From an uncultured bacterium (GTDB lineage: Bacteria; Cyanobacteriota; Vampirovibrionia; Gastranaerophilales; Gastranaerophilaceae), in assembly GCA_902796515.1 (NCBI GenBank), contig CADBOZ010000122.1:10924-74923 (forward strand): 64,000 nucleotides of DNA, read 5' to 3'. Below are positions 5,802 through 64,000 of this stretch, in pieces (the first letter of the stretch is position 1; each line of letters begins with the position of its first letter). A model generated the notes under the pieces. It was not told the origin of the DNA, did not search any database, and saw nothing but the letters and a program-made list of their open reading frames with translations. The translations under genes and the position numbers were made by a program.

Positions 5802-5813
5802 TTAGTTAACGGG

Positions 5814-6935: not shown

Positions 6936-6936
6936 A

Positions 6937-7266: not shown

Positions 7267-7267
7267 T

Positions 7268-7582: not shown

Positions 7583-7594
7583 AAAGGATTTAAA

Positions 7595-7990: not shown

Positions 7991-8006
7991 TAAAAGGATT
8001 TATCTC

Positions 8007-9554: not shown

Positions 9555-9566
9555 AGAGGGTAGAAA

Positions 9567-15836: not shown

Positions 15837-15982
15837 TTGATTGTCATATATTAAATATACTCTTCCCGTCTATATATTATCATGGATTTCTTTTAAACAA
15901 AAGTTATAGAAACCTTATTCTTTGTAATAGTTAACAATTGCCTAAAAACCCCTTAAACTATAAGAAAGGATGATATTCGCAG

Positions 15983-16312
15983 ATGTTTTTTTCTAAAATA
16001 ACAGGTAAAAAAGAAATTATTTTTACTATAAATTCTTCAACTGTCACAGACGATACGGTTGACAGAATTTTTGACGCCGATGCCGTTTTGAAAAAAATAG
16101 GAATAAATATGCAGCATGTTAGCTGTATTAAATCAAAAAAATTTATCAAATGCCTGATTGAAAATAAATTCAGACTTTATAATCTGCAAAACGATGTCCT
16201 TGTTTATCTTGCCATTGTGCTAAAAGACGGATTTTTAAAATCCCACATGTCATGTGAAGATTTACTGGAAAACAAACGTGAACTTGTGAAACGTCATTTT
16301 CTTGTTGCGTAA
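15983..16312 (+). CDS. hypothetical protein (about 110 aa; faintly STAS-like)
   Basis: ORF track only, with no confident motif. Divergent from the HK-like gene. Confidence 0.3.
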   Translation: MFFSKITGKKEIIFTINSSTVTDDTVDRIFDADAVLKKIGINMQHVSCIKSKKFIKCLIENKFRLYNLQNDVLVYLAIVLKDGFLKSHMSCEDLLENKRELVKRHFLVA

Positions 16313-16357
16313 TTTGAATTTTTTGCTTCAAAATATTTTATTTTGTAAAATTTAATT

Positions 16358-25358: not shown

Positions 25359-25367
25359 TTATCAGTT

Positions 25368-27140
25368 TTATTCCTTTATATATGAAGTTAGTATTCTTGC
25401 GGCTTCTTCAGGATTGCCGAGAATTGTGTTTATAATTTCACTTTTCTTTTTGTCAACAACGGATGTAAATTGTATATCCTGTTGATAAAAATCATCATGA
25501 TTTGTCTGATTTTGTTGAAGAGCAATATACGGGTCAAAGGTCGGAAGAGCTTCCTGTTCTTCTTCTTCGCTTTCTTTTCTTTCCTCTTCGGGTTTAAGAG
25601 CTTTAAAGATGCTTCCGAAATTATTAAGTGCCATAATTCCGAGGAACAGCACGAGAAGTACCGGAGAAACATTTTTAAATATAAATGCCAGAACATCCAT
25701 AATGAATTCCTGCTGACGTTCTTTATCCTGTCTTACGGCTTCTTCTTTGTCTATGCCCGTGAACTTCAAGCTTGATACATTAACTACATCACCTCTTGAA
25801 AAATCCATACCCGCTGCCGCTTGAACAAGATTTTTAATTTCAGCTTTTTCTTCCTCGGTTAAAATCTTATTAACCGCAACGGCAACGCTCATTCTTACAA
25901 CGGAACCGGGTGCATATACAACCTGTTTTACTTCTTTTGTAACGGCGTAAGTTGTAGCCTGTTTTTCTTTTTCATAGCTTAATTTACGAACATCGTTATC
26001 ATTTTTCGGATATTTATCTTTATCTATATAGTTTGTTGTTTTGGCAGGTGTTTCGTTTAATGTCATTGCCGTAACATTTTGAGGTTCAACAATTCCCTGC
26101 TGCTGAACCGTTTCTTCGTCGGAATTTTGTTGTTCGGCAAGAGTGTTCATTTCATTTTGCGCATTTGTTTGTGCCTGTGTAACTTCGGGCTGTTTTCCGC
26201 CTGTTGTTGATGATGCATTGGACGGCAAGTCTTTCGGATTTGAATAAACTTCTTTTTCTCCCTGCTTTGTTAAAACAACGCCCGCATCCGAATCTTTATT
26301 CGGGGTATAGCTTTCAATAGTGGAGCGTGTTTGATTGAAATCCATAACCGTTGAAACCTGAACCGAAACATTATCTTTTCCCATTATTGTTTCAAGTGTG
26401 TCTTTTATTTTTTTTGCGGCTTCTTTTTCAAAATTGGTTCTGTAGGTTTGCATATCGGTTGAATTTTTAGAAACATCATCCGATAAAACATTTCCGAATT
26501 GATCCGTTATAAATACCCTGTCGTTGGTAAGACGCGGGATTGAATATGCTACAAGATTTTTAATTGCAAGAATTTGGTTTGCTTTTAACTTGACTCCGGC
26601 ATCCAAAATCAATACAACACTTGCCGAAGGTTCTTCATCTTCATCCGAGAAAATTGACCTTTCGGGTTCGGCAAGCTGTACTCTTGCTTTCGAAATTCCC
26701 TGAATTTTTTCAATCGAGCGCGTAAGTTCACCCTGAAAAATTCTTTGTTTGGTCAGTTTGTTTTTAAAATCTGTAGAGCCCATTTGCAGTTCATCAAGAA
26801 GTTCAAAACCGCCGGATGTATCTTTAATTAAGTCATTTTCGGCAACAAACATTCTCAAAGTTTCTTTATCTTGATTTTTAACAAGAATTCCGGTCTTGTC
26901 TTCCGTTAATTTATACGCATAACCGCTTTTTTTCAAACTTTCCGTTATTGCCGCCACATCCTGTTTTGATAAATCCGAATACAAAACAGTCCAATTCGGT
27001 TCGGTTGCCTTAAAAATAAAGAATACGCCGACAACAATCATTGCAACAACGAGAGCTGCAATTGAGAACTTCTGGTTTATATCAAGCTTATTCCAGAGGT
27101 TTTTAATATCTTCTATTATTAATTTTATATGTTCATTCAC
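25368..27140 (-). CDS. fliF: flagellar MS-ring protein FliF
   Basis: 590 aa. N-terminal TM, then ...LYSDLSKQDVAAITESLKKSGYAYKL..., ARVQLAEPERSIF and a second TM near the C-terminus. Has a Gln/Thr/Asn-rich insert mid-protein. Confidence 0.9.
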   Translation of the reverse strand: MNEHIKLIIEDIKNLWNKLDINQKFSIAALVVAMIVVGVFFIFKATEPNWTVLYSDLSKQDVAAITESLKKSGYAYKLTEDKTGILVKNQDKETLRMFVAENDLIKDTSGGFELLDELQMGSTDFKNKLTKQRIFQGELTRSIEKIQGISKARVQLAEPERSIFSDEDEEPSASVVLILDAGVKLKANQILAIKNLVAYSIPRLTNDRVFITDQFGNVLSDDVSKNSTDMQTYRTNFEKEAAKKIKDTLETIMGKDNVSVQVSTVMDFNQTRSTIESYTPNKDSDAGVVLTKQGEKEVYSNPKDLPSNASSTTGGKQPEVTQAQTNAQNEMNTLAEQQNSDEETVQQQGIVEPQNVTAMTLNETPAKTTNYIDKDKYPKNDNDVRKLSYEKEKQATTYAVTKEVKQVVYAPGSVVRMSVAVAVNKILTEEEKAEIKNLVQAAAGMDFSRGDVVNVSSLKFTGIDKEEAVRQDKERQQEFIMDVLAFIFKNVSPVLLVLFLGIMALNNFGSIFKALKPEEERKESEEEEQEALPTFDPYIALQQNQTNHDDFYQQDIQFTSVVDKKKSEIINTILGNPEEAARILTSYIKE

Positions 27141-29537: not shown

Positions 29538-30785
29538 ATGTCGCTTCATCAAAAACATTATTACAGATTTATTTTAATAACGCTCGGGACTATACTTTAT
29601 TTTTTGGCAAATATCCAGCGTGTTGCAATTCCGGGGGCGATATTTGATTTGCTTCAGGGAAATTTCCTTGTGAGTGCATCAAAAATTACGCTTCTTGGGT
29701 CAATTTTCTGCTATGTATATGCTTTTTGTCAGCTTATAGTCGGACTTATGGTTGATAAATTCGGCGGCTTCAGGGTTATTGCCATAGGAAGTGTTGTTTT
29801 TTCAATAGGTGCGATTTTATTTCCTCTTTCGGATAATATAAATATCCTTTATTTGAGCAGAGGACTTGTAGGCTTCGGTGCGGCAACATTTTATTTAAGC
29901 TCAATCAGAGAAGTAAAAAAATTTGCAAAAGATAAAAATTTTTCTCTTGCAATATCTTATATTTTGTTTATCGGATATTGCGGAGGGATATTTGCAAATG
30001 CGCCGTTTGTTGCCGTTGTTAATCAAGCGGGATGGCAAAATTCCCTGTTCTTAATAGGCTGCTTTACCGCAGTTGTTACTTTAATATATTTAACTTTGCT
30101 TCTAATCTTTAAACCCGTGCATATTGAAAAAAAGTCACATCTCAGTTTTTCACCGTTTATTGAAGTTTTAAAGAATAAGAAAAATATAAATCTTTATATT
30201 TTCGGCAGCATAAATTACGGACTATACTACGTTTTGCAAAGTATTATAGGTAAAAAATTTCTGCAGGATTTTTGCAACTTCGGAGTAAATAAAGCAGCCG
30301 TAATATTGTCTATAATGGCTGTAATATCCGCATTTGCAGGGACAATTGTTGCTTATATTTCAAAATGTATAGGAAACAAACGAGCTCCTATTTTTAAAAT
30401 TGTCGGAATTTTATCCGTTTTATCCGTTTTATCCGTTTTCGGACTTTTGTTTTTTGATATTCATTCCAAAATAATTGCTTTAATATTCTGTATACCGTCT
30501 TTTATAGGAAGTATTTCTCCTCTTTTGATTTTAACTTTACATTGTTTAAACAGGTATGAAGTATCTGCAACCGCGGTAAGTATACAAAACTTCGGATTTT
30601 TTATGATGGTTGGTATTTTAGGGATGATATCGGGGCTGCTAATGAATGTATTTGAGCCTCAAAATATAAACGGTATTCTTATATATTCAAACAAATCTTA
30701 CGCTCTTGTATACGGGTTGTTTTTAATACTAAGCGTAATTCAGGCAATTTGCGCGTTTAGAATAAAAGATGAAAAATTAATCTAA
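29538..30785 (+). CDS. MFS transporter
   Basis: 415 aa with about 12 TM segments. MFS-like loop MVDKFGGFRV. Confidence 0.8.
   Translation: MSLHQKHYYRFILITLGTILYFLANIQRVAIPGAIFDLLQGNFLVSASKITLLGSIFCYVYAFCQLIVGLMVDKFGGFRVIAIGSVVFSIGAILFPLSDNINILYLSRGLVGFGAATFYLSSIREVKKFAKDKNFSLAISYILFIGYCGGIFANAPFVAVVNQAGWQNSLFLIGCFTAVVTLIYLTLLLIFKPVHIEKKSHLSFSPFIEVLKNKKNINLYIFGSINYGLYYVLQSIIGKKFLQDFCNFGVNKAAVILSIMAVISAFAGTIVAYISKCIGNKRAPIFKIVGILSVLSVLSVFGLLFFDIHSKIIALIFCIPSFIGSISPLLILTLHCLNRYEVSATAVSIQNFGFFMMVGILGMISGLLMNVFEPQNINGILIYSNKSYALVYGLFLILSVIQAICAFRIKDEKLI
30411..30437 (+). repeat. 3 x 9-nt perfect tandem repeat (ttatccgtt) inside the MFS CDS
   Basis: The DNA reads ttatccgtt three times and encodes LSV-LSV-LSV (track: ILSVLSVLSVFGL). 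Confidence 0.8.
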
Positions 30786-31457
30786 AAAATCATTAATTCT
30801 TTCAGGTGCAAGATACATAGGTGTTCCTTGCTTTTGAATGTATGTTTGTGTTTTTTTATATTCTTCCATTTTGCTTTCAATATAGCTTTGAACTTCCGTA
30901 TCATAGGCCTTGAAGCCCATTTTATAATAAAAAGGAATAGGTGAGCCTACAGCCTCGTTTATAACCATGGCATTCAAAATAACTCTTCCCTCATATCCTT
31001 TTTCGAAGCTTCTTTTAACGGCTTCTTTAAGCATAAAGCTTCCGGCACCTTTACCTTTTGAAAAAAGAAGAGATATCTCAATTGCTCCTTTATTGTTTGA
31101 ATAAAATTCATTATCGCAATCTTCGGTTTTGCATTTTGTTTCGATTGTTTTCATAGTGGCTTTTATATCGTCATCCGTTCCTTTTAATATATAAAACCCT
31201 TCATCAAAAGTTGTGAGTTTGTATTTTTCTCCTTGTATATCAACAATTTCTTCTTTAAAGCTCGGTACTTCATATGCGGAAGCGCATAAATCAAGAGTGC
31301 TATCGAAAATCGCTTTTTCTTCTTTTTGTTTTATATCTTTATAGCCTGCCTTAAAATTAACATTATTTAAGGCGGGAGAATAATAATTAAAAAGATTTAT
31401 TTTTCCGATATTCATACTTCTTTTAAAAAACAAAAATACAAAATTTTGCCATTGCAA
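30777..31457 (-). CDS. GNAT-like (acetyltransferase-fold) protein with a non-hydrophobic N-terminal leader; tandem paralog 1
   Basis: 226 aa in the track, which uses a TTG start. The likelier start is the internal MNIGKINLF... about 14 codons in. GNAT-like motif A SKGKGAGSFMLKEAV and a C-terminal SPIPFYYKMGF. Confidence 0.55.
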   Translation of the reverse strand: MQWQNFVFLFFKRSMNIGKINLFNYYSPALNNVNFKAGYKDIKQKEEKAIFDSTLDLCASAYEVPSFKEEIVDIQGEKYKLTTFDEGFYILKGTDDDIKATMKTIETKCKTEDCDNEFYSNNKGAIEISLLFSKGKGAGSFMLKEAVKRSFEKGYEGRVILNAMVINEAVGSPIPFYYKMGFKAYDTEVQSYIESKMEEYKKTQTYIQKQGTPMYLAPERINDFLD

Positions 31458-31459
31458 AA

Positions 31460-32107
31460 TTAATTAAGGTATTCCTTGATTTTTTCAGGGTCAAGATACA
31501 TAAATACACCTTCAATATCTATATCTTTTCCTGTTTTTTCATATCTTTGAATTTCTTTATCAATCCTTGATTGCTCTTCGGGGTAAAATGCTCTAAAACC
31601 TAACTTATTATAAAAAGGAATGGGTGAACCCGCTTTTTCAAATATATTGCAGGCAAATATTATAACTCTTCCTTCATAACCGAGTTCAAAGCTTTTTTTA
31701 ACCGCCTGCCTAATCATTTCTTTGCCTGCGCCGTTGCCTTTTGAATAAAGTCCTTTAATCTGAACGGCACCGTTATTATCGGAATAAAAATCGGATAAAC
31801 ATCCTTTGGTTTTAGATTCTTGTATGCCAAGACTCATTGTGGCTTTTATATCGCCAATGCCTGATTTTAAGACATAAAAACCGTTATCATACGAAACAAG
31901 AGTCAGTTTATTCCCGTTAACATTAACCGCTTCTTTTTTACAACTTGTTGCCAATGTGCTATTGTGATTTATGTGTAATCTTAAAATTTTATCAAATAAA
32001 ATTTTATCTTCATCGGATTTAATATCCTTATATCCCAAAAAAGCCGGTTTTTGAATTTTCGGACGGGAATAAGAATATGTTACGGGATTAATTCTTGTGA
32101 TTTGCAT
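31460..32107 (-). CDS. GNAT-like protein with a non-hydrophobic N-terminal leader; tandem paralog 2
   Basis: 215 aa. SKGNGAGKEMIRQAV and SPIPFYNKLGF. Clearly homologous along its length to 30777..31457. Confidence 0.55.
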   Translation of the reverse strand: MQITRINPVTYSYSRPKIQKPAFLGYKDIKSDEDKILFDKILRLHINHNSTLATSCKKEAVNVNGNKLTLVSYDNGFYVLKSGIGDIKATMSLGIQESKTKGCLSDFYSDNNGAVQIKGLYSKGNGAGKEMIRQAVKKSFELGYEGRVIIFACNIFEKAGSPIPFYNKLGFRAFYPEEQSRIDKEIQRYEKTGKDIDIEGVFMYLDPEKIKEYLN

Positions 32108-36244: not shown

Positions 36245-36919
36245 ATGTTAAATTTTTCAAAAAAACATAATTATCCGGGAGTGTTGATTTGTGTTGAAGG
36301 AATAGACGGTTCGGGAAAATCGACACAAATTGAACTTTTATACAGCTGGCTGAAATCAAAAAATGCGGATGTGATTTTAACCCAGTGGAACAGCTCCGAA
36401 CTTATCGCAAACACTACCAAAAAGGCAAAAAAGAAGAATTTATTATCGGGAAGAACATTTTCTCTTCTTCATGCCGTTGATTTTGCAGACAGACTGGAGC
36501 GAACAATAAAACCCGCCCTAAAAGCCGGATTTATTGTACTTGCCGACAGATATGTATATACGGCTTTTGCAAGGGACGTTGCAAGGGAAGTAGACCCGAA
36601 GTGGGTCAGAAATTTGTATGGTTTTGCAATAAAACCCGATTTGGCTTTTTATTTTGATGTATCTCCGAGGGACAGTCTGGAAAGAATTTGCTCAAACAGG
36701 CAGCCGGGGTATTATGAAGCCGGAATGGACATGAAATTATCCAACAATCCGTATAAGAGTTATGTTATATTTCAAAACAGAATAGCGGAACAATACAGAA
36801 ACATGCTTGACGAGTTTGAGTTAATTAAAATTGATGCAAAAGAGTCAATTCATAAAAAGCAGGAGCTTATAAGAGCGAAGGTTTTGGAAGTTTTGGAAAA
36901 AAATAAAATTAAGGTTTAA
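36245..36919 (+). CDS. thymidylate-kinase-like P-loop kinase, tandem copy 1
   Basis: 224 aa. P-loop VEGIDGSGKSTQ and a DRY box LADRYVYTAFARD. Confidence 0.7.
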   Translation: MLNFSKKHNYPGVLICVEGIDGSGKSTQIELLYSWLKSKNADVILTQWNSSELIANTTKKAKKKNLLSGRTFSLLHAVDFADRLERTIKPALKAGFIVLADRYVYTAFARDVAREVDPKWVRNLYGFAIKPDLAFYFDVSPRDSLERICSNRQPGYYEAGMDMKLSNNPYKSYVIFQNRIAEQYRNMLDEFELIKIDAKESIHKKQELIRAKVLEVLEKNKIKV

Positions 36920-36920: not shown

Positions 36921-37622
36921 ATGAAGGCAAAAGAAAAAGTCAAAAAGACAAAAGAAGTAACAAAAGCACACGGATATAATGGTATGCTTGTTGTAATCGA
37001 AGGAACGGACGGTTCGGGCAAGTCAACTCAGGTTAATTTGTTATCTCAATTTATTAAAGATAAAAGTTACGGCTGTACGGTATCGGAATGGAAAACTTCA
37101 AGGCTTATTTCGGGTGTGATTAATGAAGCAAAAGAAAAAAATATGCTAAACACTACGACATATTCACTTCTTTATGCCGCCGATTATACGGACAGACTTG
37201 AAAACGAGATAATTCCCGCCCTGAAAGCAGGCTTTGTTGTTTTGATGGACAGATATATCTATACGGCATACGTAAGAGATTCCGTAAGGGGTCATGATAT
37301 AAAATGGGTAAAAAACCTATACAGCTTTGCGCCGAAGCCGGATTTGGTTTTTTACTTAAATGTGCCGACGGAAATTTTGATTAAAAGACTTATAGCTAAA
37401 AACGGCGTACTTGATTATTTTGAGTCCGGAAGAGATATAGGACTTTCGACAGATACATACAGCAGTTTTGAAATTTATCAAAAAAGGTGTCTTGAAGAAT
37501 ATAAAAAATTAAAAAAAGAATTTAATTTTATAGAACTCGACGGAACTAAATCTCAGGAGGAGCTTCATAAAGAAATCAGAGCAAAAGTTCAGGAGCTGCT
37601 TGATAGCGGATTTGTAAGTTAA
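36921..37622 (+). CDS. thymidylate-kinase-like P-loop kinase, tandem copy 2
   Basis: 233 aa. IEGTDGSGKSTQ and LMDRYIYTAYVRD. Alignable to copy 1 over its whole length. Confidence 0.7.
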   Translation: MKAKEKVKKTKEVTKAHGYNGMLVVIEGTDGSGKSTQVNLLSQFIKDKSYGCTVSEWKTSRLISGVINEAKEKNMLNTTTYSLLYAADYTDRLENEIIPALKAGFVVLMDRYIYTAYVRDSVRGHDIKWVKNLYSFAPKPDLVFYLNVPTEILIKRLIAKNGVLDYFESGRDIGLSTDTYSSFEIYQKRCLEEYKKLKKEFNFIELDGTKSQEELHKEIRAKVQELLDSGFVS

Positions 37623-44465: not shown

Positions 44466-44792
44466 CTAATCTTTGGTTTTGACATTTTTTTCGCTTATAT
44501 CGGTAATTCTTAAACCGAAATTATCTTCAATAATAACTACTTCACCTCTTGCAACTTCCCTTCCGTTTGCAAGAAGCTTAATCGGCTCTGATGTTGTATT
44601 ATCAAGCTCAATTATAGAGCCTTTTGTTATATCTAAAACTTTTTTTAAACTGGCGTCTGTTTCGCCGAGTATTGCCGATATTTCAAGTTCAACATCAAGA
44701 AGAAGATTATAAGTGCCCGTCCTTTTTGCCATAGGCGGTCTTTCAACATTTTCCAGTTTGCTTATATCAAGGTTTTTAGGCTCTTTAGACAA
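44466..44792 (-). CDS. fliN: flagellar motor switch protein FliN
   Basis: 108 aa. SpoA domain LLDVELEISAILGETDASLKKVLDITKGSIIELD...LLANGREVARGEVVIIEDNFGLRI. Confidence 0.9.
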   Translation of the reverse strand: MSKEPKNLDISKLENVERPPMAKRTGTYNLLLDVELEISAILGETDASLKKVLDITKGSIIELDNTTSEPIKLLANGREVARGEVVIIEDNFGLRITDISEKNVKTKD

Positions 44793-44795
44793 ATT

Positions 44796-45773
44796 TTACT
44801 CCTTTTCCTGATATTGACCTGTTATTTTAACGCATACTTTATTTTTAATACTGCCGGGTGCAACATAGAACTTCTTTTTGTTGTTTACGCATCCGATAAG
44901 CTCTTCATTGAGCTTTTGATCAAGTTTAATAATATCATCTTTTTTTAAAGAAATCACATCATTTATTTCCATATTGGCAGTACCGAGTATGACCCTGAAA
45001 TCCACTTCGGCACCTTTGATTTTTTCCAGTGTTTCATTTTTTCCTATTTCATTTGCCGAAACATTTGCATGCTGATAGATGTATTGCGGTGTTAATTTGG
45101 GAAGCACCGTTTCAAGAACAGGATAAGGGAAACAAATATTCATTAAACCGAAACTTTTTTTGCCGAAGCGAACCTCAAAAGAGATTAACGTTACGATTTC
45201 TCCCGAATTTGTAATAGGTATGGTGTGATATCCGTTAACAAGAGCTATAAATTCGGATTTAACCGGTAAAATTGTACCCCAGGCTTCTTCCAATATTTTT
45301 ATTATTTTTTCCGTGAATTTTGTTGTTAAAAGTTCCTCAATCTGTGTTAATTCTTTTCCGTGTTCGGAGGATATTCCCGCGCCGCCGAGCATTCTGTCAA
45401 GAACAACGGCAAGTACTTCCGGACTCATTCCCATGGAAATTTCGCCCGTCAGAGGATTTAGCTTAAAAATCATATTTTGTACATGCGACGGCATTGAACA
45501 GATATATTCTTCGTATGTAAGCTGGTCAACGGAAATAACATCAATTTCAACTTCCATGCGCAGGTATCCCGTTAAATTTTGTGCAAGATGTCTTACAAAA
45601 TCCCTGTGAATATCCTGAAGAGCTTTTAAGTGTTCTTTTGAAAATTTATCCGGACGTCTGAAGTTATAGAGTTTGCAGCTTTTTTTAAACTCGTCGGAAA
45701 CGCTCGAATCAAGTTCAAGTGCGGTTTCTTCTCCGCTTATATTGGCTTGTGAATTAAGTTCTTGTTCTTCCAT
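44796..45773 (-). CDS. fliM: flagellar motor switch protein FliM
   Basis: 325 aa. ...KLYNFRRPDKFSKEHLKALQDIH..., LDRMLGG, and a C-terminal SpoA-like domain. Confidence 0.9.
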   Translation of the reverse strand: MEEQELNSQANISGEETALELDSSVSDEFKKSCKLYNFRRPDKFSKEHLKALQDIHRDFVRHLAQNLTGYLRMEVEIDVISVDQLTYEEYICSMPSHVQNMIFKLNPLTGEISMGMSPEVLAVVLDRMLGGAGISSEHGKELTQIEELLTTKFTEKIIKILEEAWGTILPVKSEFIALVNGYHTIPITNSGEIVTLISFEVRFGKKSFGLMNICFPYPVLETVLPKLTPQYIYQHANVSANEIGKNETLEKIKGAEVDFRVILGTANMEINDVISLKKDDIIKLDQKLNEELIGCVNNKKKFYVAPGSIKNKVCVKITGQYQEKE

Positions 45774-46472: not shown

Positions 46473-46814
46473 AAAGTCGGCTGATAATCGCGTAGCAAAT
46501 TTGTTATGAGGAAAGTCCGGACAGTCAGATAGCATATTGCTTGGGAAATCCAAGTGCCCGTGAGGGTGAGGACAGTGCCACAGAAATGAAGGTTACTGCG
46601 CAAATCCTTTAGGATTTATGCTCAGCAAAAGTGCAACGGCGGAGTAAGAGCCCACCGCTGATATTGTGAAATATCAGGCAAGGTAAACCCCGATAGACTG
46701 CAAGTTTGACTTTGCAACAGGTGCTATCCCGTTTCTTATTTAAAGAAGTTGCAAGAAAAAACGCATTAGACAGATGATTATTTTAGTTACAGAATCCGGC
46801 TTATAACTGACTTT
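46473..46814 (+). ncRNA. rnpB: RNase P RNA, bacterial type A
   Basis: Universal blocks GAGGAAAGTCCGGAC, AGTGCCACAGAAA, GGTAAACCCC and ACAGAATCCGGCTTATAA. The P1 pairing is aaagtcgg (5') with ctgacttt (3'). Ends are approximate. Confidence 0.9.
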
Positions 46815-46842
46815 CTGCCTTATTTATATAAGGCAGTTTTTA
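46815..46842 (+). terminator. rho-independent terminator after rnpB
   Basis: ctgcctta-tttatat-aaggcag hairpin followed by ttttt. Confidence 0.7.
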
Positions 46843-51495: not shown

Positions 51496-54276
51496 ATGAA
51501 AGTGGATTTTCGTTTGCATACGAGTTCTGCCGTAAAAAATTGTGCTGCGGCAAAAAAAGTTCAGGCGCAAGAAACGATACCTAAAACAAGTATGAATAAT
51601 ACCGGAATGCTTTTGAGTTTTACCGCAAATCCTCTGAAAAATACTTCTCAGGTAGCTTCAATTGCTCCCGAATATCAGGGAATATTAAATAGTGTATATA
51701 AACTGGGCGGTCTGGGTAATGTAGCGGGAGAGGCCTCTCTTGCTTTTTCGGATAGCGGAAAAATGGATTTCAGGACTTTTGTTCCTTATTATGCACCCGA
51801 AAATACTTCGGGCGGTATAAAAGTGAAAACACCTTTAATTGAAGAAGGAAAACCTGTCGTGTGGGATGTTCCGAGGGTTGCAAACGGCACACCCATTATG
51901 CAGGACGGAAAACCTGTAATTGATAAAGTGCCCGCATATGAATTTAAGTCAGTGCCTGTGGATTATGTGCTTCAGGAAGGTGAAAATTTTGTTATCCATG
52001 AGCCTGTTAATAAATTTGCCCCATGGAAAACAGGGTATAAAATTCTTGAAGAAACAGGTATAACAGGTAGTGTTGAATCCGTTAACGATGATTTATCGGG
52101 TATGAAAAAAACTTCTTATAAAGTATTTTCTATTCAGGGTACGGGAATAAATAAAGCGGGAAGCCCTCCTGTTTATATAGTTCATACTCCGCAGCTGGCG
52201 AAATTTCCGCGTGCTTACGGCGGAGTTTCCGCTTATGCGGGCGGTTCTTTTGAAGATGCCGACTATGCCGTATTTTCAAAGGCCTCCGTTGATGCCATGC
52301 CGAAATTAAACAAAGAAGAATTCGGAAATTTTAACCCCGCAAATTACTGGCTTCATGACAGACAGGCATTTCCGACTCTTGTTGAAATATCGGAAAAATC
52401 ATCTCAGGGAGATGAATACTGGAGAGGCATTAAGGCGCATTCAAGCTTCCATAATCCCGGAAGAGATTATCAGGGACATTATACAAGCCCGATTGATTTT
52501 ATGAGAATAATAGGTTCAAACGAGGATTTGAAGGAAATACAAAAAAACCCCGATGATTATAAATTTATTCGGGATATGATAAATAAACTCGAAAATGAAA
52601 GAAAACAGAAGAACGGAAAATTTTCACCGGAAGAAATTCTTTCAAAAGAGGAATTGGCAAGACTTAATGAAATATTTGAGCCTTTGTACGGAGATTTTAA
52701 AGATGAAACGGGACAGTATAACTTATGTAAAATACCGATTGACGGCGTAAGAAAAAACCCCTTTAATTTTAGCGCCGGAACTGTTTCGACAACATTCGGA
52801 AAGGAAATGAAAAACCATAATACAAAGGAAATTGCTCCCGGTTTAACAAAAGATTTAGCATCCATTCCGACGGTTGATATTGTAAACGGTTCATCCGCAA
52901 AAAGTATGCGCCTTGATATTACGGGAGATTTCGGAAGAAATAACGGTTTTACGGAAGAAGTTAAAAAAGGTTTCACTCCTTTAACAAAAGAAATTACGGA
53001 ATCACCCGATCTTTTATTTGAAGCAAAGCAGAGTAATAAAAAATGGCTGATTGATACCTTTGCTTCACACGGTCAAAATCAAGACACTCTGGCTTCTCTT
53101 GTGTATAGCAGGGATGCGATTGAAAAAGGCTCTACCGTTCTTGGCGGTCTGAGTGAATATAAAGACAAAGATGTTTTATTTGTAAGCTGGGGAAGACCGG
53201 ATGCTCAAAAAGGATTTCCGACTACGCTTGAAGGAGTTTTGGACTATTTTAAGGATGCTGCCGTACCTCAGGATAAAAAAGAGCATGCAAAATTCTTAAT
53301 AGGTGCAGGCCCCTGGGGGGATGAGGCACGTGATTGGAAAACAATTAAATCCCAGATGAAGCAAATAGAAGAACTTGACGGAGGAAAGTACAAAGGAAAT
53401 GTTTGCTATTTAAACGGATTTTTCACAAATAGAATAGTTGCTTGTGCTGATTATGCAAATATTACAAGCAGATACGAACCATGCGGAATAACTCCTCTTG
53501 AATCGTTTGCGGGAGGAACACCTGTTATTTCAAACAGAACGGGAGGTTCACCCGATTTTATTGCACCTTTTATTAAAGGAAAAGAAATTACAAATGAAAC
53601 GGGATTTTTAACAAAAAATGCGTATCTTGTAAACCCTGAAGTTATAGGCGCAGAACCGACTCTTAAGGGACTTAAACTTGATGCGGCAAGAAGAGCGGCA
53701 CTCGGAAAAGAAAACGCATCTTGTATAGAAGAGGCGGTAACTTTATTGCAGGATAATCCCTCGGGATATAAAAAAATGATGATGAATGCAATAAATGCAA
53801 AAATTGACTGGCACGAAAACGGTTTGTTTAACGGCGGAAAGAGCGCAATAGAAAGATATAAAGAATGCGCATGGGCAATAGGTGGTGATAACAAAGTATT
53901 AGCAGGTCAGGAAAGAAATATAGAGCCGCTTGCAACGCTAAAAGGCAGAATATTTAAGAAAAACCCCGTTGTTGCCGTTGTTGAAACAAAAGTTGAAGAA
54001 GTGACGGAAAAAATAAAAGAAGGTGTTGAAAAAACCGGAACATTCTCATCAGGTTTGAAAAAATACTTTAATTCATTTTTAACCAAAGTTAAAAATCATA
54101 AGGCGCTTGCCGTAAGCGCTGCGGTTGTTGTTGCGGGATTAGGTATATTCAGGTTAATGTCTTCAAAAAATAAACCCGACGTAAGTAAACTAAACCCGAA
54201 ATTTGTAAAACAAACAGCACGCGCTTCAACTCTCGGTAAATTATCTTTTGATAATTTTGCAAAACAAAGAAGATAA
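51496..54276 (+). CDS. glycogen/starch-synthase-like glycosyltransferase (GT5-like), unusually long, with a C-terminal TM anchor
   Basis: 926 aa. N-domain KLGGLGNVAGEASLAF (compare KxGGLxDV). C-domain WGRPDAQKGF...ITSRYEPCGITPLESFAGGTPVISNRTGGSPDFI. C-terminal hydrophobic segment ALAVSAAVVVAGLGIFRLM. Confidence 0.7.
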   Translation: MKVDFRLHTSSAVKNCAAAKKVQAQETIPKTSMNNTGMLLSFTANPLKNTSQVASIAPEYQGILNSVYKLGGLGNVAGEASLAFSDSGKMDFRTFVPYYAPENTSGGIKVKTPLIEEGKPVVWDVPRVANGTPIMQDGKPVIDKVPAYEFKSVPVDYVLQEGENFVIHEPVNKFAPWKTGYKILEETGITGSVESVNDDLSGMKKTSYKVFSIQGTGINKAGSPPVYIVHTPQLAKFPRAYGGVSAYAGGSFEDADYAVFSKASVDAMPKLNKEEFGNFNPANYWLHDRQAFPTLVEISEKSSQGDEYWRGIKAHSSFHNPGRDYQGHYTSPIDFMRIIGSNEDLKEIQKNPDDYKFIRDMINKLENERKQKNGKFSPEEILSKEELARLNEIFEPLYGDFKDETGQYNLCKIPIDGVRKNPFNFSAGTVSTTFGKEMKNHNTKEIAPGLTKDLASIPTVDIVNGSSAKSMRLDITGDFGRNNGFTEEVKKGFTPLTKEITESPDLLFEAKQSNKKWLIDTFASHGQNQDTLASLVYSRDAIEKGSTVLGGLSEYKDKDVLFVSWGRPDAQKGFPTTLEGVLDYFKDAAVPQDKKEHAKFLIGAGPWGDEARDWKTIKSQMKQIEELDGGKYKGNVCYLNGFFTNRIVACADYANITSRYEPCGITPLESFAGGTPVISNRTGGSPDFIAPFIKGKEITNETGFLTKNAYLVNPEVIGAEPTLKGLKLDAARRAALGKENASCIEEAVTLLQDNPSGYKKMMMNAINAKIDWHENGLFNGGKSAIERYKECAWAIGGDNKVLAGQERNIEPLATLKGRIFKKNPVVAVVETKVEEVTEKIKEGVEKTGTFSSGLKKYFNSFLTKVKNHKALAVSAAVVVAGLGIFRLMSSKNKPDVSKLNPKFVKQTARASTLGKLSFDNFAKQRR

Positions 54277-55679: not shown

Positions 55680-57605
55680 TTATTTTTTATGTTTAATATT
55701 TGCAAAAGTTTTAAACAATCTTGTCTTTTCAGTCGGGACAAAACCTTTTTCAATAAAAAAGTCATCCTTAAAATCATATTTTTTCAATATCGGGATATTT
55801 AATTTTCCTGTTTTTTTAATATAATAGCCAATTGTATAATTTTTATCTTCAATTTTGTCCGTAAAATGTTTCGGATTGTTTGTTATTTCCCTGTTTTCCT
55901 TTATGATAATATAATCAAAATCATCAAGATTATTTTCTGTCATATAATTAAAACTTACAAATTTTAAGTTATAAGCTGTAAGTTTTTTTATTTCATAAAA
56001 TTGTTCGTGGTTTAAAACAAGAACCTTATCTTCTTTTTTGAATTTTTTAATAAATTCACCTGACATCAGGTAATCTTCAATTATTTCTTTATCTGTATAC
56101 GGACATTTTAAGATAATTTCGGATTTCATATTTTTGTCAAAATCAAATAATAGGAAAGTGTAAAGCGGACATCTTGATGACGAAATTGAATAAACGGTAA
56201 AATTATATATACAAAAAGGTAAAACTAAAAATTTAACAAAATTAACTCTCTTAAAATAACTAAAATAAAATGCAGGTACCGTTAAAGCAATAAATTCAAC
56301 AAAGTATCTTATTGAAAATAGTGATTTATCTATAGATACGCAGTGAATAATGAAATTCAGAACAAAAGTTATTCCGAAAACAGAAATCATTTTTATTTTT
56401 TTGTTTGTTGTTTTGAAAAATGCAAATAATGAAACGATGATAATATAAAGTATAAATAATGTTTCGGTAACGGAAAAACCCTTAACTCTTTCATCTCTCA
56501 TTATGAGAAACGGATTATTAATAAAATTTGAAATAAGAGTTTTAAAGTTATCAACTAAATTTAAAACTTTGTGTTCGGCTTGAAAAGTATAAGGGGCAAG
56601 AAAATTATGAAAATCAATATAGTTTAAAATGTAATTATAGCTTGAAAAAATAATAAAATTTAAAGTCAGACATAAAATGAATTTTAGTATATTATTATAA
56701 TTTTTTTTAAAGATTAAATTAAATGAAATAATTACAACAATAAAGGCAACAAAATCCATTATTGCCGTTGTTTTAATGCCTATAGCAATTGCATAGGCAA
56801 GAGAAGAAAAATAAATAAGTGCACAGGAATTTCTATTTGATGCCTTTATATAAAGATAAATGCTTGCAATAATAAAAGAGGCAGTTAGAATATCCGTTTG
56901 AAGGGATGGAATTTGAACAAGTATAAGTGCAAGTGATGAAAATACGAATATTGAAAACAGTGCTTTTCTTGTTGAGATTTTAAATTCTTTGAAAATATTA
57001 AATAATCCCGTAATAAGGAAAATAAAAGAAAAATAAGATAACAATCCGAATGAAAAATCATTATTTTTAAAAATATAAAAATAAGTGTAAATAATTTCAG
57101 AATTGAAAGGCATTATTATATTTCTTATTTCGTCCGTATCAAAATGATTAAATGAACCCTGTCTTATGAATTCAAACACTCTTGAAAAATAATAAAATCT
57201 GCTGTCCGGCTCAAGCGGAAGCGAATATATTGAAAGGAAAAGAAAACTTAAAAGCATAAATAAAAAGAAAAATAAAAACACAATAAGTGTCTTATCAAGC
57301 TTCAGAGAGTTATATATTTTTCTGAAAGTATCTTTCAAGTTTGGGATATACGGTTTTTTTGATAATTTGTACCAAAACAAAAAAGAAACAACAAAATTAA
57401 TAAAAGAAGCAATTATAATCGATTTTGTATTAAAAAGATGAAGAAGCGACAGAATTTCGCAATTTAAAACAATCAAACCAAATATGACAATAAAAAAAAT
57501 GAATAAATCCTCAAAAATTGAACAAATCAAGTAACTTGATATAAAATTTAGTAAAATTGTTAAAAACATGGTTTTGATTTTAACATTATACAATAAGACA
57601 GGCAA
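55680..57605 (-). CDS. large polytopic membrane protein, GT-C-fold-like; paralog of 16358..18436
   Basis: 641 aa. The likely start is the internal MFLTILLNFISSYL. Blocks shared with the paralog: LNxEILSL, PLEPDS, MP(F/I)NSEI(I/V)YT, IIFSSYNY(I/V)LN(Y/F)I. Confidence 0.5.
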   Translation of the reverse strand: MPVLLYNVKIKTMFLTILLNFISSYLICSIFEDLFIFFIVIFGLIVLNCEILSLLHLFNTKSIIIASFINFVVSFLFWYKLSKKPYIPNLKDTFRKIYNSLKLDKTLIVFLFFFLFMLLSFLFLSIYSLPLEPDSRFYYFSRVFEFIRQGSFNHFDTDEIRNIIMPFNSEIIYTYFYIFKNNDFSFGLLSYFSFIFLITGLFNIFKEFKISTRKALFSIFVFSSLALILVQIPSLQTDILTASFIIASIYLYIKASNRNSCALIYFSSLAYAIAIGIKTTAIMDFVAFIVVIISFNLIFKKNYNNILKFILCLTLNFIIFSSYNYILNYIDFHNFLAPYTFQAEHKVLNLVDNFKTLISNFINNPFLIMRDERVKGFSVTETLFILYIIIVSLFAFFKTTNKKIKMISVFGITFVLNFIIHCVSIDKSLFSIRYFVEFIALTVPAFYFSYFKRVNFVKFLVLPFCIYNFTVYSISSSRCPLYTFLLFDFDKNMKSEIILKCPYTDKEIIEDYLMSGEFIKKFKKEDKVLVLNHEQFYEIKKLTAYNLKFVSFNYMTENNLDDFDYIIIKENREITNNPKHFTDKIEDKNYTIGYYIKKTGKLNIPILKKYDFKDDFFIEKGFVPTEKTRLFKTFANIKHKK

Positions 57606-61192: not shown

Positions 61193-61208
61193 AATTAAAA
61201 AGCGACAG

Positions 61209-61244
61209 AAAAATTGCCTGAATTTGATTTCAGGCAATTTTTTT
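61209..61244. terminator. bidirectional rho-independent terminator
   Basis: aaaaa-ttgcctgaa-tttgat-ttcaggcaa-ttttttt between convergent genes. Confidence 0.75.
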
Positions 61245-61252: not shown

Positions 61253-61495
61253 TTATTCGGCTAATTTATTGTGGAATGTTCTTGATATAACGTCATCCTG
61301 CTGCTCTTTTGTCAGTTTTGTAAAATTAACAGCATATCCTGAAACTCTAACGGTTAATTGCGGATATTTTTCAGGATGTTTTTGAGCATCTATAAGTGTA
61401 TCTCTGTTAAAAACATTAACATTCAAGTGATGCCCGCCTTTTTCAACATATCCGTCCAATAAATTGATTAAATTTTCTTCCTGCTGAGTCGACAT
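61253..61495 (-). CDS. grcA: stand-alone glycyl-radical domain protein (GrcA/YfiD-like, minimal 80-aa form)
   Basis: 80 aa. [64 protein letters not shown] matches the C-terminal glycyl-radical domain of pyruvate formate-lyase (RVSGY). It has its own strong RBS (GGGGAGGG). Confidence 0.85.
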
Positions 61496-61564: not shown

Positions 61565-62509
61565 TTATTTTTTAATAATTTTACTTACTTCATGTGCCGT
61601 ACATAATGAATACGCCCTTGCAAGCGGTTGAGAAGAATTTTCAAATTCCCTAAAAATTTCTTTTTCGGATTTATTTTCAATCCTTATTACAAAATCATCA
61701 TCGTCATATTTCCTGAATCTGTTGTTTAAAACTTCATAGTGCGGAACATTTGATACGTTTTCGGGCGAGCTTAAAAATAATGATTCAAAATACACATCCA
61801 AAGTAAGTTTTTCTATCAAATTTGCTTCGGCAAATGCTTTATTTAATAAATCATTTAACGATTTTGCTTTAATATTTTCTTCTTTGACATTTGTATATTT
61901 TTTAATTAAATTGCGTATTGCTCTTAAAGACCCGCCCGTGCAGGTAAAATCAAGTACAATATTTAACTTGCCGTCATCTAAATCTTTTGATTTTATATAA
62001 TCGATTAAATATTTTAATGACGGAATTTTATCGGGACTATCTTTTTCAACATCAAGACTTCTTGCTCCTGTTGCGGGAATAAATAAAATATCATGTCCGA
62101 GAAGTGCGAGCTGTTCGCATAAAGGTGCGGGGGAAGTCCCTATTGAAATTATTCTTGCATTTTTATAATTTTCTTTAATATAATTATGGGCTTTTGAAAC
62201 TATAGTTGCCATAACCTGCGGAGTTATGCTGTCTTTAAGATTTTCATCGCAATATTTTTTTGCTTTTACTAAAGAATACGGGTGTTTTTTAACTATATCT
62301 TCGTATTCTTCTTTTGTTACTTTTCCTTTACGAATTAAAAATTTATTAAAATATTTTTCTTCTTTTTGTTTATGCAGTTTAATATTTTGAAAATGAGAAG
62401 ATATTGAGCCAAAAGAAAAACTGTTTTGGGGATATTCAGGTTTAATTTTCTTCGGGCGGCAAAAATTATTAAAATTAATTTTATTGACTGAAACGGGAGT
62501 AACTTGCAT
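61565..62509 (-). CDS. unknown-function protein, tandem array copy 1 (PRPP-loop-like motif IVLDFTCTGGSL)
   Basis: 314 aa. Blocks shared with the next two genes: KGKVTKEEYEDIVKKHP, RIISIGTSPAP, DDGKLNIVLDFTCTGGSL, SNVPHY, NSSQPLARAYSLCTAHEV. Confidence 0.6.
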   Translation of the reverse strand: MQVTPVSVNKINFNNFCRPKKIKPEYPQNSFSFGSISSHFQNIKLHKQKEEKYFNKFLIRKGKVTKEEYEDIVKKHPYSLVKAKKYCDENLKDSITPQVMATIVSKAHNYIKENYKNARIISIGTSPAPLCEQLALLGHDILFIPATGARSLDVEKDSPDKIPSLKYLIDYIKSKDLDDGKLNIVLDFTCTGGSLRAIRNLIKKYTNVKEENIKAKSLNDLLNKAFAEANLIEKLTLDVYFESLFLSSPENVSNVPHYEVLNNRFRKYDDDDFVIRIENKSEKEIFREFENSSQPLARAYSLCTAHEVSKIIKK

Positions 62510-63466
62510 CTATTGTTCACCTTTTAATTTGTTGATTTCATGCATTGTGCAAAGAGAAAATGCTCTTGCAAGCGGTTGAGAAGAATTTTTAAATTCTTCA
62601 AAAACAGCATCAGGTGTCTTATTATCCGTTCTTATAGTAAAAGTTCTTTTTGGATATTCTTTTTTATTTCTGTCAAAAACGGGAAAATGCGGAACATTCG
62701 AAATGTGTTCGACTTCAGAACATTTTATATCGCATTCTATATTATTTTTGCATTCTTCTTCGTCATAAGATGAATTTCTAAAAACGGCATCCATAATAAT
62801 ATTCAGGTTTGCAGCCCTGAATTTCAAGGATTCTTCAAATTCATCATAATGTTTATCAATAAAATCTATAACATTATCAAGGGTTTTTCCCGAAACAGTA
62901 TAATCAAGAATAAGATTTAGTTTGCCGTCATCTATATTTTTGCTTTTTAAATAGTCAAGAAGAATTCTTAATTGAGGATTGTTATATATTGAGTCTTTAT
63001 TGGGGTTGTATTTTCTGAAGCTTGAAAGCGGAAGATATACCGTATCGCACCCAAGTTGTTCAAGCTGCTCTGTTATGGGAGCGGGAGATGTTCCGATTGA
63101 TATAATTCTGAAATTTCTGTAATTTTTCTTTAAAAATTCATTGATTTTTAAAACAACCACGGCCATATCTTCGGGAGTTGCAATACCGCCGTAGTTTTTA
63201 TTGCAGTATTTTTTTGCTTCAATTAAAGTTGAAGGGTGGTTTTTAACTATATCTTCGTATTCTTCTTTCGTTACTTTTCCTTTATGGGTTAAAAATTCAT
63301 TAAAATATTCTTCTTCTCTTTTTTCAAGAAGTCTTACATTTTGCAATTGGGGAGATATTGAGCCAAAAGAAAATTCCTTTTCGGGTTTTTCGCCTTTAGT
63401 TTTATATACCTTGTTTATAGGCTTGTTATATTTTATTCGGGCAATTTTAATCGGAGAAATTATCAT
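62510..63466 (-). CDS. unknown-function protein, tandem array copy 2
   Basis: 318 aa. KGKVTKEEYEDIVKNHP, RIISIGTSPAP, DDGKLNLILDYTVSGKTL, SNVPHF, NSSQPLARAFSLCTMHEI. Its stop directly abuts the copy 1 start. Confidence 0.6.
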   Translation of the reverse strand: MIISPIKIARIKYNKPINKVYKTKGEKPEKEFSFGSISPQLQNVRLLEKREEEYFNEFLTHKGKVTKEEYEDIVKNHPSTLIEAKKYCNKNYGGIATPEDMAVVVLKINEFLKKNYRNFRIISIGTSPAPITEQLEQLGCDTVYLPLSSFRKYNPNKDSIYNNPQLRILLDYLKSKNIDDGKLNLILDYTVSGKTLDNVIDFIDKHYDEFEESLKFRAANLNIIMDAVFRNSSYDEEECKNNIECDIKCSEVEHISNVPHFPVFDRNKKEYPKRTFTIRTDNKTPDAVFEEFKNSSQPLARAFSLCTMHEINKLKGEQ

Positions 63467-64000
63467 TATTTTTTTCCTTTTGATTTATTAATTTCATGCA
63501 TGGTACAGAGTGCAAAAGCTCTTGCAAGAGGCTTTGAATAATTATCTAATTCTTTAAATATTTCTTCTTCGCTTTTATTTTCTGTTGTTACAACGGATGG
63601 TACAGTAGAATATACTTTTTTTGCGCGTTTCAACACGGGAAAATGAGGAATATTTGATATTTCTTCAATTTTACTTGATTTCATATCTTCAAGAATTTCC
63701 GTTTTTAATTCAATCCAATTTTTTCTTGTTCGATTTGAAATAGCAGGATGAATCAGCAGCTTATTTATTGAAACCGCTTCTATATTTTTATCCGAAATTC
63801 CGCAATATTCCTGAATAAAATTTTGAATTTTCTCGAGTGTATAACCTGAATATGTATAATCCAAAACAATATTATGTTTATCATTATCAATATTTTTAGT
63901 ATTCAGATAATTTGCAAGTATTTTTAAATCCGGCTCATTTTCAAAAGTATGCAGTTTTTTCTCATACGGTCTGAAACCTGAAATCGGAACAAAAACAATA
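63466..64000 (-). CDS. unknown-function protein, tandem array copy 3 (partial; N-terminus beyond the window end)
   Basis: The track lists 63466..63864 from an internal TTG. My hand translation stays open up to nt 64000 (...IVFVPISGFRPYEKKLHTFENEPDLKILANYLNTKNIDNDKHNIVLDYTYSGYTLEK...) and keeps aligning with copies 1 and 2. The C-terminus is NYSKPLARAFALCTMHEI. Confidence 0.6.
   Translation of the reverse strand, partial: IVFVPISGFRPYEKKLHTFENEPDLKILANYLNTKNIDNDKHNIVLDYTYSGYTLEKIQNFIQEYCGISDKNIEAVSINKLLIHPAISNRTRKNWIELKTEILEDMKSSKIEEISNIPHFPVLKRAKKVYSTVPSVVTTENKSEEEIFKELDNYSKPLARAFALCTMHEINKSKGKK

Follow-up and report, generated by a model that had tools for sequence, protein, structure and literature searches.

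A tandem gene array in an uncultured Gastranaerophilales bacterium encodes an unannotated protein family with a probable phosphoribosyltransferase-derived core and a candidate N-terminal address tag

The window analyzed here is a stretch of 64,000 nucleotides (nt) from contig CADBOZ010000122.1 of an uncultured bacterium of the Gastranaerophilaceae, with a G+C content of about 33%. At one end of the window lies a head-to-tail array of paralogous genes on the minus strand, whose products of roughly 315 amino acids (aa) belong to a family that the sources call only "hypothetical protein". The core of these proteins is probably a derived type I phosphoribosyltransferase (PRT) fold with an altered ligand site, and it is preceded by a disordered segment that begins with a short, shared tag. 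The three genes present within the window are as follows.

61565 to 62509, minus strand: copy 1 (array position D), a 314-aa open reading frame (ORF) and the last gene of the array; family-profile hmmsearch E = 1e-97
62510 to 63466, minus strand: copy 2 (array position C), a 318-aa ORF with 44.6% aa identity to copy 1
63466 to 64000, minus strand: copy 3 (array position B), the C-terminal 177 codons, the rest being cut off by the window edge; assigned by translation and family hmmsearch

The initial annotation, which was made from the window alone, had described three co-oriented paralogs that are separated by gaps of 0–1 nt and align along their whole length, and the ORFs confirm this. The stop codon of copy 2 abuts the ATG of copy 1, and the TAA of copy 3 overlaps the ATG of copy 2 by 1 nt. 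End-to-end alignment of the copies gives pairwise identities of 41–50% at the aa level and 56–61% at the nt level. The conserved blocks that had been quoted were all found: KGKVTKEEYEDIVK-HP, RIISIGTSPAP, DDGKLN-LD-T-[ST]G, SNVPH[FY] and NSSQPLARA[YF]SLCT-HE. The reading frame of copy 3 has its stop at 63466–63468 and is open to the window edge, and the suggestion that the array might continue beyond this point proved correct. The metagenomic contig L009 matches the window at 99.5% identity across 2.8 kb and reaches past its edge; it contains the full-length copy 3 (318 aa; L009:9045-10001 in its ORF list) and a fourth copy upstream of it, which is 319 aa long from an ATG or 332 aa from a TTG.

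This is a real four-gene array. It was recovered in three independent assemblies (L009, L010 and L011) and copy number varies among lineages, and therefore an assembly duplication artefact is excluded. The initial annotation had allowed for such an artefact, should the gene prove to be single-copy in all relatives; instead, the survey of relatives that it called for revealed head-to-tail arrays of 1–7 copies across six further lineages. Counted with the family hidden Markov model, there are two copies in L001-4, L005/6 and L013-15, one in L007/8 and seven in L016. A protein identical to copy 2 is present on both L009 and L010. In L009, copy 1 appears as an ORF of only 215 aa (P0280 in public gene calls). 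Pseudogenization was rejected as the cause: a scaffold gap, consisting of a run of Ns and a 4-nt gap at approximately L009 10990–11003 (window 62456–62468), produces a false truncation.

The family is unrecognized, as had been proposed. None of the window copies matches a Pfam or NCBIfam model above threshold, and neither the family nor its N-terminal tag was found described in the literature. A word-indexed search returned 15 relatives, and an exhaustive profile search returned, at E<=1e-3, 510 clusters defined at 50% identity, of which 112 have E-values below 1e-30. All of these matches come from metagenomes or metagenome-assembled genomes with sample names of the rumen or gut type; the scan of species-representative genome contigs gave one match, RUG14156. 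Searches of the Protein Data Bank (PDB) sequences by phmmer and by profile produced chance-level or EF-hand-like matches only, a PHROGs scan gave no meaningful match, and none of the 12 pattern matches obtained when viral contigs were scanned with the family alignment (A2) was confirmed. The family also includes natural two-unit fusion proteins (P0016, P0019, P0110, P0119 and P0302).

The architecture of the family was examined using AlphaFold models of copy 1 and of P0137, a relative that is ~20% identical. Both models are of good quality, with predicted local distance difference test (pLDDT) scores of 85.4 for copy 1 and 87.8 for P0137, and a predicted template modeling score of 0.82 each. 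In both, the order of elements is helix, beta-alpha-beta, insert, beta-alpha-beta. In the copy 1 model, residues 118–225 form the core (beta-alpha-beta, insert, beta-alpha-beta), while residues 231–313 are mostly helical. The parts of copy 1 map to the window as listed, with E. coli Apt, an adenine phosphoribosyltransferase (APRT), as the reference for the two loops; PPi and PRPP denote pyrophosphate and phosphoribosyl pyrophosphate, respectively.

62405 to 62509, minus strand: predicted disordered N-terminal tail, codons 1–35, pLDDT <50; it starts with the tag MQVTPVSVNKINF... and ends with the FSFGS motif
62168 to 62398, minus strand: predicted four-helix N-terminal domain including KGKVTKEEYEDIVKKHP, codons 38–114, with helices at 38–59, 66–75, 78–90 and 97–114
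62123 to 62155, minus strand: RIISIGTSPAP, residues 119–129, strand beta1 and its loop, the probable counterpart of the PRT PPi loop; aligns to Apt VVGTEARG
61925 to 61963, minus strand: NIVLDFTCTGGSL, residues 183–195, a PRPP-loop-like strand-loop-helix; aligns to Apt VLVVDDLLATGGT
61736 to 61753, minus strand: SNVPHY, residues 253–258, with the near-invariant His257
61586 to 61639, minus strand: NSSQPLARAYSLCTAHEV, residues 291–308, a C-terminal helix block conserved in the close subfamily only

Conservation was measured in a set of 129 members with 17% mean column identity, and additionally in a 61-sequence set and in 17–18 close members. Two residues, G124 and D187, are invariant in the 129 members, and S122, T125, S126, P127, G138, P145, G192 and H257 are conserved in at least 90% of them; H257 is invariant in the 61-sequence set. 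All four copies of the array retain S122, G124, T125, S126, P127, P145, D187, G192 and H257. In the models, the conserved positions are found at the C-terminal ends of strands 1–3 and in SNVPH, as would be expected if they made up a ligand or active site. The residues S293, P295, A297, R298 and L302 of the C-terminal block are invariant in the 17–18 close members and not in the 129-member set.

The two domains that flank the core are less easily classified. The four-helix domain has a weak likeness to a degenerate EF-hand pair. Against the EF-hand pair of SCaMC-1, the family profile scores E=0.027, and the Pfam models EF-hand_1 and EF-hand_6 are each matched weakly by three members (best E=0.05). 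The calcium ligands of an EF-hand, at positions 1, 3, 5 and 12 of a 12-residue loop, were sought in copy 1 and not found; the corresponding loop reads F-L-I-R-K-G-K-V-T-K-E-E, which places F, I and K at positions 1, 3 and 5. At the other end of the protein, the metagenomic protein P0153 carries a PLDc_2 domain (E=1.4e-10) fused to the C-terminal module of the family, which spans ~95 residues (SNVPHF...RPQARAYQLC). This single example, perhaps a chimeric gene call, suggests that the C-terminal region can be separated from the rest as a module.

Several independent comparisons relate the core to PRTs. When the 129 members were searched singly, the commonest weak Pfam match was Pribosyltran (4 members, best E=3.9e-4), and PRTase_2 was found as well, while no window copy matched PF00156. 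Among the weak NCBIfam matches, the APRT, HGPRT and ComF models recur; among the window copies, a weak APRT match was obtained for copy 1 alone (E=0.026; 14.3 bits versus a cut-off of 188). In PADLOC, the commonest model was ShosT, a PRTase toxin, which matched 3 of the 129 members (best E=1.4e-4); the window copies themselves gave no match. Models of SIS domains are absent from the recurrent weak Pfam and NCBIfam matches.

Profile alignment using hhalign provides the register. Family profile and E. coli Apt align with P=0.0011 over 100–111 columns, and all 25 non-PRT E. coli proteins used as controls have P>=0.038. Here, IGTSPA is placed on VGTEAR, [FY]-h-P on F-V-P after strand 2, and h-h-L-D-[YF]-x-x-[ST]-G-x-[ST] on V-V-D-D-L-L-A-T-G-G-T, so that D187 pairs with Apt D127 and T191-G192-x-S194 with Apt T131-G132-G-T134. 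The suggestion that IISIGTSPAP corresponds to the first PRT loop is consistent with this alignment, which puts IGTSPA on the PPi loop of Apt. The SIS-domain controls GmhA, MurQ and MurR gave P=0.05–0.15 with the GTS loop not aligned. Gpt and Upp were not significant, yet in both the best local alignment is the PRPP loop. The search for APRT homologs yielded only relatives that are at least 83% identical, and the profile–profile result was no better than that of the single sequence.

The structural comparison points in the same direction. For both models, the only compact Foldseek matches in the PDB whose probability reaches roughly 0.9 or higher are PRTs: 4trb, an APRT (0.96), 6igs, an HPRT (0.93/0.91), and 5esw (0.90). 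Nominally better E-values belong to pyridoxal phosphate (PLP) enzymes, which superimpose with root-mean-square deviations (rmsd) of 14–20 A. In the copy 1 model, the motif T191-G192-G193-S194 sits between strand 182–187 and helix 193–205, as would be expected of a turn that binds a 5-phosphate.

Against a PRT origin stand a number of results that fall short of the usual thresholds. The hhalign probability for Apt is only 20%. Foldseek returned nothing from the PDB at E<=1e-3 for either model, and the PRT matches themselves have E=0.03–0.2, template modeling (TM) scores of 0.33–0.44 and rmsd of 5.5–6.5 A. A PROSITE-style PRPP regular expression had 0 matches across the window and the related loci, and no PRT model of Pfam or NCBIfam reached its curated threshold. 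Given these scores, the core could be a convergent Rossmann-like domain. Taking the sequence register and the models together, a derived PRT fold is nevertheless the likely identity of the core. The structural check that had been proposed, Foldseek on AlphaFold models, gives PRTs as the best compact matches, none of them significant at E<=1e-3.

A PRT scaffold is not the same as a catalytic PRT. The PRPP-binding motif of PRTs, PROSITE PS00103, is 13 residues long and contains two adjacent acidic residues. The family consensus, h-h-h-D-[YF]-x-x-[ST]-G-x-[ST], has only the second of these (D187), and the first position is occupied by L, I or V (L186 in copy 1). In the PPi loop, Gly-Thr is retained and the position of the basic residue, Arg in PRTs, is filled by Ala, Ser or Pro. 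In place of the hood, or flexible-loop hairpin, of PRTs, the family has a loop and a helix. Because the first acidic residue and the PPi-loop Arg are lost, the hairpin is replaced and the PROSITE pattern is unmatched, the family is not filed among the catalytic PRTs; it is PRT-like in its scaffold, with the 5-phosphate turn kept, and is not a canonical PRT. The PRPP-loop-like motif noted in the initial annotation is therefore the right motif, a strand-loop-helix in the model that aligns on Apt, while membership of the catalytic PRTs, which it had implied for copy 1, was not established.

Outside the PDB, the copy 1 model has closer structural relatives. In BFVD, the significant, near-full-length Foldseek matches, which have a probability of 1.0, are exclusively to uncharacterized proteins of giant viruses. 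The best is Orpheovirus A0A2I2L5G3 (E=1.2e-7, 291 aligned columns, TM 0.54/0.50), followed by Fadolivirus A0A7D3QVB5 (E=4.5e-7) and Klosneuvirus A0A1V0SK92 (E=1.9e-6), while Harvfovirus A0A3G5A1V0 and Faunusvirus A0A3G4ZY21 have E-values of about 5e-4 (upper 5.9e-4). As far as predicted structures can tell, this shows that the whole architecture, and not the core alone, exists outside this bacterial lineage.

The array bears the marks of exchange between its copies and of rapid protein evolution. Copies 1 and 2 share a gene-conversion tract, which occupies the following positions.

62241 to 62449, minus strand: conversion tract in copy 1, with its partner at 63195–63403
63195 to 63403, minus strand: conversion tract in copy 2, with its partner at 62241–62449

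Within the tract, 169 of 209 nt are identical (81%), versus 59% over the whole gene in these two copies, and in its core (62285–62365 versus +954 nt) the identity rises to 73 of 81, which accounts for the stretch of ~80 nt of near-identity that had been noticed at the outset. The proposal of gene conversion was put to a codon test. Where copies 1 and 2 have identical residues, the same codon is used at 37 of 41 positions inside the tract and at 51 of 92 outside (Fisher p=5.7e-5), the latter count including the equally conserved IISIGTSPAP block. As identical residues share codons inside the tract far more than outside it, gene conversion is supported. No comparable excess of codon identity was found in the other copy pairs.

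Comparison of two strains (the window and L011) shows how fast the proteins change. The three paralogs differ by 22 nonsynonymous and 13 synonymous substitutions, with ratios of nonsynonymous to synonymous rates (dN/dS) of 0.31–0.51. The adjacent genes, which are grcA3, a gene for an FAD-dependent oxidoreductase, and cstA, differ by 1 nonsynonymous and 29 synonymous substitutions, with dN/dS of about 0. The counts are small (Fisher p=2.4e-7). The family is under selection but changes at the protein level much faster than its neighbors.

The tag at the start of these proteins has the consensus M-[KRNQ]-I-x-x-[ILV]-[NKS]; of the 129 members, 82 have Ile as the third residue. It opens an N-terminus that is predicted to be disordered in both models (residues 1–35 or 1–46), and in the fused proteins the second unit lacks it. 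A position-specific scoring matrix (PSSM) was trained on residues 2–13 of the family, and 164 ORFs, taken from the window and from six related loci, were scored with it. All family members rank on top, and they are interleaved only with two families of ~200 aa that have weak matches to GNAT acetyltransferase motifs. The genes of the latter are also tandem paralogs.

30777 to 31415 and 31460 to 32107 of the window, minus strand: tag-bearing pair of tandem paralogs of ~200–215 aa, 46% identical
15413 to 16039 and 16042 to 16605 of L016 (region 14741–16659), minus strand: tag-bearing tandem paralogs, found with the PSSM

In L016, a third co-oriented ORF (14741–15370) has the tag, MNINPISFG, at an internal Met and thus lay outside the PSSM scoring. 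The proteins of the GNAT-like families start with MNIGKINLF..., MQITRINPV... or MNISPISFG..., and the L016 genes are located ~1.3 kb downstream of the seven-copy array, on the other strand and separated from it by a single RNase_T gene. That the tag-bearing 215-aa proteins are distant members of the array family was ruled out by hhalign. Judged by these sequence patterns, the tag appears to serve at least two enzyme-like tandem families as a common address. An encapsulation peptide for a bacterial microcompartment was considered for the tag, as glycyl-radical genes are nearby; it was rejected, with no shell genes seen and a tag that is not predicted to be helical. The flagellar proteins FlgK, FlgL and FlgM of the window give no score with the tag PSSM, and a motif search for a flagellin, whose N-terminus could be compared, found no flagellin gene in the sequences examined.

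The surroundings of the array were also examined. The features nearest to it, and those of the window and related contigs that bear on the discussion below, are as follows.

61253 to 61495, minus strand: grcA3, autonomous glycyl-radical cofactor, 80 aa; NCBIfam NF038360, 163.5 bits versus a cut-off of 158
61207 to 61244, no strand assigned: terminator-like hairpin with a 16-bp stem and T-runs on both strands, after grcA3; an equivalent is present in L009
6174 to 6494 and 6933 to 7985 of L009, and 7212 to 7589 and 7885 to 8937 of L001: repeat-rich proteins, conserved beside the array in two species
2041 to 10481 (plus strand), 22105 to 27041 (minus strand) and 44466 to 45773 (minus strand): flagellar clusters with rod, L-/P-ring, FlgM/N/K/L-like and FliM/N-like genes, assigned mostly by eye

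The gene grcA3 is co-oriented with the array and lies 69 nt downstream of copy 1. A second terminator-like hairpin, at L009:8007-8042, immediately precedes the array's first copy, and there are no terminator-like sites between copies. The four copies and grcA3 may thus form one transcription unit with grcA3 as its last gene; promoter-like sites showed no excess over the shuffled expectation. Upstream of the array, in this and one related species, are a gene for a protein like pyruvate formate-lyase (PFL), a histidine kinase, a LuxR-type response regulator and the two repeat-rich proteins. The PFL-like glycyl-radical enzyme, upstream of the array in L009 and L001, is 715 aa long. The repeat-rich proteins contain a repeated motif of ~30 aa (..YAKxxNIsxxEAKexLxxKYGdP..); the 350-aa one is very rich in Q, P and G and has a weak PatG_C match (E=4e-5), and in L001 the small one carries a signal peptide that is lipoprotein-like. 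In other lineages, the neighbors are unrelated and often associated with polysaccharides (MBOAT/AlgX, Acyl_transf_3, Poly_export, Bac_transf, amylase, GH38), and an LdpA-type gene lies beside one relative.

Elsewhere in the window, the flagellar clusters, as assigned from sequence, indicate a flagellated diderm; the putative L- and P-ring genes are the ORFs at 5196–5801 and 5814–6935, based on their position in the cluster and on signal-peptide-like N-termini. The G+C content, the full flagellar gene set, the sample names and the LdpA-type gene would be in keeping with gut Melainabacteria (Gastranaerophilales). Other genes of the window include one for a 926-aa starch/glycogen-synthase-like protein (51496–54276, plus strand) with GT5 and GT1 matches, which is atypical in that a long, unusual stretch (MKVDFRLHTSS...) extends its N-terminus and a hydrophobic segment is present at its C-terminus. 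Two large, paralogous, multi-pass membrane proteins (16358–18436, plus strand; 55680–57605, minus strand) have the near-identical N-termini MFLCSVLLNFISSF... and MFLTILLNFISSYL..., and the second of them has a weak match to PMT_2 (glycosyltransferase family 39-like) in the L009 gene table. An adjacent pair of dTMP-kinase-like genes with the P-loop EGxDGSGKSTQ was recognized by eye (36245–36919 and 36921–37622, both plus strand). Of the Rfam families, bacterial class A RNase P RNA alone exceeds its gathering score in the window (46473–46818, plus strand; 189.6 bits).

The explanation that is cautiously favored is that the array encodes a diversifying enzyme family, built on a PRT-derived scaffold with an altered site for a phosphoribosyl- or nucleotide-type ligand, carrying a shared N-terminal tag and probably forming dimers. 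The ligand, a phosphorylated ribosyl or nucleotide-type compound, would be bound in the cleft that the ends of strands 1–3 and His257 make up. The proteins would act on it enzymatically, with a chemistry unlike standard PRPP-dependent base salvage, and all copies would be equally competent. PRTs are dimers, and the same is probable for this family; as two-unit fusions exist in addition, neighboring paralogs may pair as heterodimers. The tag would serve as a common address, either for export or for assembly at one site, that is also present on other tandem enzyme-like families. The array itself would grow and be homogenized through tandem duplication and gene conversion. In addition to the sub-threshold PRT scores, this explanation has to contend with the genomic context and with the tag. 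The neighbors in other lineages lie on either strand without conserved order, so that no pathway emerges from context. The tag has no hydrophobic core, is by inspection not of the Sec or Tat type and resembles no recognizable or curated signal, which leaves export as pure inference.

Four other explanations were weighed. One is that the PRPP-loop likeness is convergent and that the core is another Rossmann-like, phosphosugar-binding domain, be it SIS-like, HAD-like or new. A GTS after strand 1 recalls SIS domains, the weak Foldseek matches include the SIS enzymes FraB, FrlB and MurQ as well as PLP enzymes, one of the giant-virus matches is annotated "HAD-like", and the PDB search was without a significant match. 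Yet the SIS controls align off the GTS loop and with far poorer P-values than Apt, for which three motifs are in register; PRT models recur among the weak matches of the 129 members and no SIS or HAD model does; and the SIS and PLP matches in Foldseek have rmsd of 11–20 A at low probability. A Rossmann-like core of another kind is thus unlikely. Another view, taken in the initial annotation, is that copy 1 is a bona fide PRPP-dependent PRT, while copies 2 and 3, with SGKT and SGYT in the motif, are degenerate, non-catalytic partner subunits. Copy 1 does have the exact TGGS tetrad and is alone in the window in its APRT match, and the fused two-unit members suggest that paralogs associate. However, [ST]-G-x-[ST] is the family-wide consensus, and SGKT and SGYT are therefore normal variants of it. 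Since, moreover, the four copies keep every conserved position, copy 1 itself is without the first acidic residue and the PPi-loop Arg, and a single-copy lineage exists (L007), the division into one catalytic and two degenerate copies does not hold, and this reading is very unlikely.

The remaining two explanations concern what the proteins do with the scaffold. They might be non-catalytic, ligand-sensing regulators in the manner of PurR and PyrR, with the C-terminal helices as an interaction or DNA-binding module. The loss of catalytic PRT residues with retention of the phosphate-binding turn would agree with this, as would a two-component system upstream of the array in two species and a weak match of copy 1 to a Mor-type helix-turn-helix (residues 280–314, E=0.17). 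That match does not recur in the family, though, and distant subfamilies do not conserve the C-terminal block. Arrays of up to seven copies with raised dN/dS would be unusual for regulators, and the near-invariant polar residues D187, H257, S122, T125 and S126 look more like an active site, which together make a regulatory function the least probable of the four. Alternatively, the proteins may be exported, effector-like enzymes, with tag and linker as a secretion signal (e.g. for the flagellar type III system), that make up an arsenal against other cells, possibly eukaryotes of the rumen or gut. The following would fit: a disordered, tag-bearing N-terminus that occurs only at the start of the polypeptide, the same tag on unrelated, weakly GNAT-like tandem families, multi-copy expansion with gene conversion and an elevated dN/dS, significant full-length structural relatives found only among the proteins of giant viruses that infect amoebae, and flagellar genes within the window, together with the export precedent in C. 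jejuni (PMC2764114). However, the tag is unlike curated signals, FlgL, FlgK and FlgM fail the tag PSSM, and a nucleotide- or PRPP-type ligand would be scarce outside cells. Export of the tagged proteins, for instance through the flagellar type III apparatus, is an attractive idea drawn by analogy, but an effector role is doubtful at present; it overlaps with a diversifying, PRT-derived enzyme family and is compatible with it. A more elaborate version is more doubtful still. Here, tag and disordered linker would be an undescribed, lineage-specific export or targeting signal for diversifying PRT-like and GNAT-like tandem cargo, and the PRT-like cargo, whose architecture is shared with giant-virus ORFans, would be an effector acting on a nucleotide or phosphoribosyl metabolite or target in another cell, such as a rumen protist.

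If the cautiously favored explanation of a diversifying, PRT-derived enzyme family is true, the array represents a large, unannotated family that combines a reused PRT scaffold and an altered active site with a novel arrangement of domains and a common tag. Such families have been a recent source of new nucleotide- and PRPP-related chemistry, of which ShosT is one example, and of new types of effector. The link to giant viruses would supply those ORFans with their first bacterial relatives and with a hypothesis for their ligand site. The array would also illustrate, in a small natural setting, tandem expansion, gene conversion and fast protein evolution beside strongly constrained housekeeping genes.

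How the family compares to known systems can be summarized as follows. For the tag, the nearest analogy is provided by the Cia proteins of Campylobacter jejuni, which are non-flagellar proteins exported by the type III secretion system of the flagellum via N-terminal sequences (PMC2764114); the analogy is to the tag only, and the Cia proteins have no sequence relationship to the family. For the architecture as a whole, the giant-virus proteins are the closest in predicted structure. The sequence identity is 14–17%, the comparison is between predicted models on both sides, and no viral relative was recovered at the sequence level. The regulators PurR and PyrR use the PRT scaffold for ligand sensing and not for base salvage. 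Unlike the family, they keep the canonical acidic pair and have defined nucleic-acid binding, of which no evidence was found here.

For the core, the comparison is with the type I PRTs themselves, that is, Apt and the archaeal-type APRTs of NF009211 and NF005592. These have the same order of secondary-structure elements as the family core and share with it the G-T after strand 1, the Pro after strand 2, and the Asp and [ST]-G-x-[ST] after strand 3. In contrast to a PRT of ~180 aa, the family proteins of ~315 aa add the N-terminal tail, the four-helix domain and the C-terminal helices with the conserved His. Finally, ShosT is the PRTase toxin of the anti-phage toxin-antitoxin system ShosTA (PMC11961720, PMC12961424). 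This system lacks the tandem, multi-copy organization and the N-terminal tag of the family; conversely, no partner of the ShosA/DprA type or other conserved partner was seen in the gene tables around the arrays of seven lineages. What ShosT and the family probably have in common is that both are divergent proteins of the PRT fold that operate outside nucleotide salvage.

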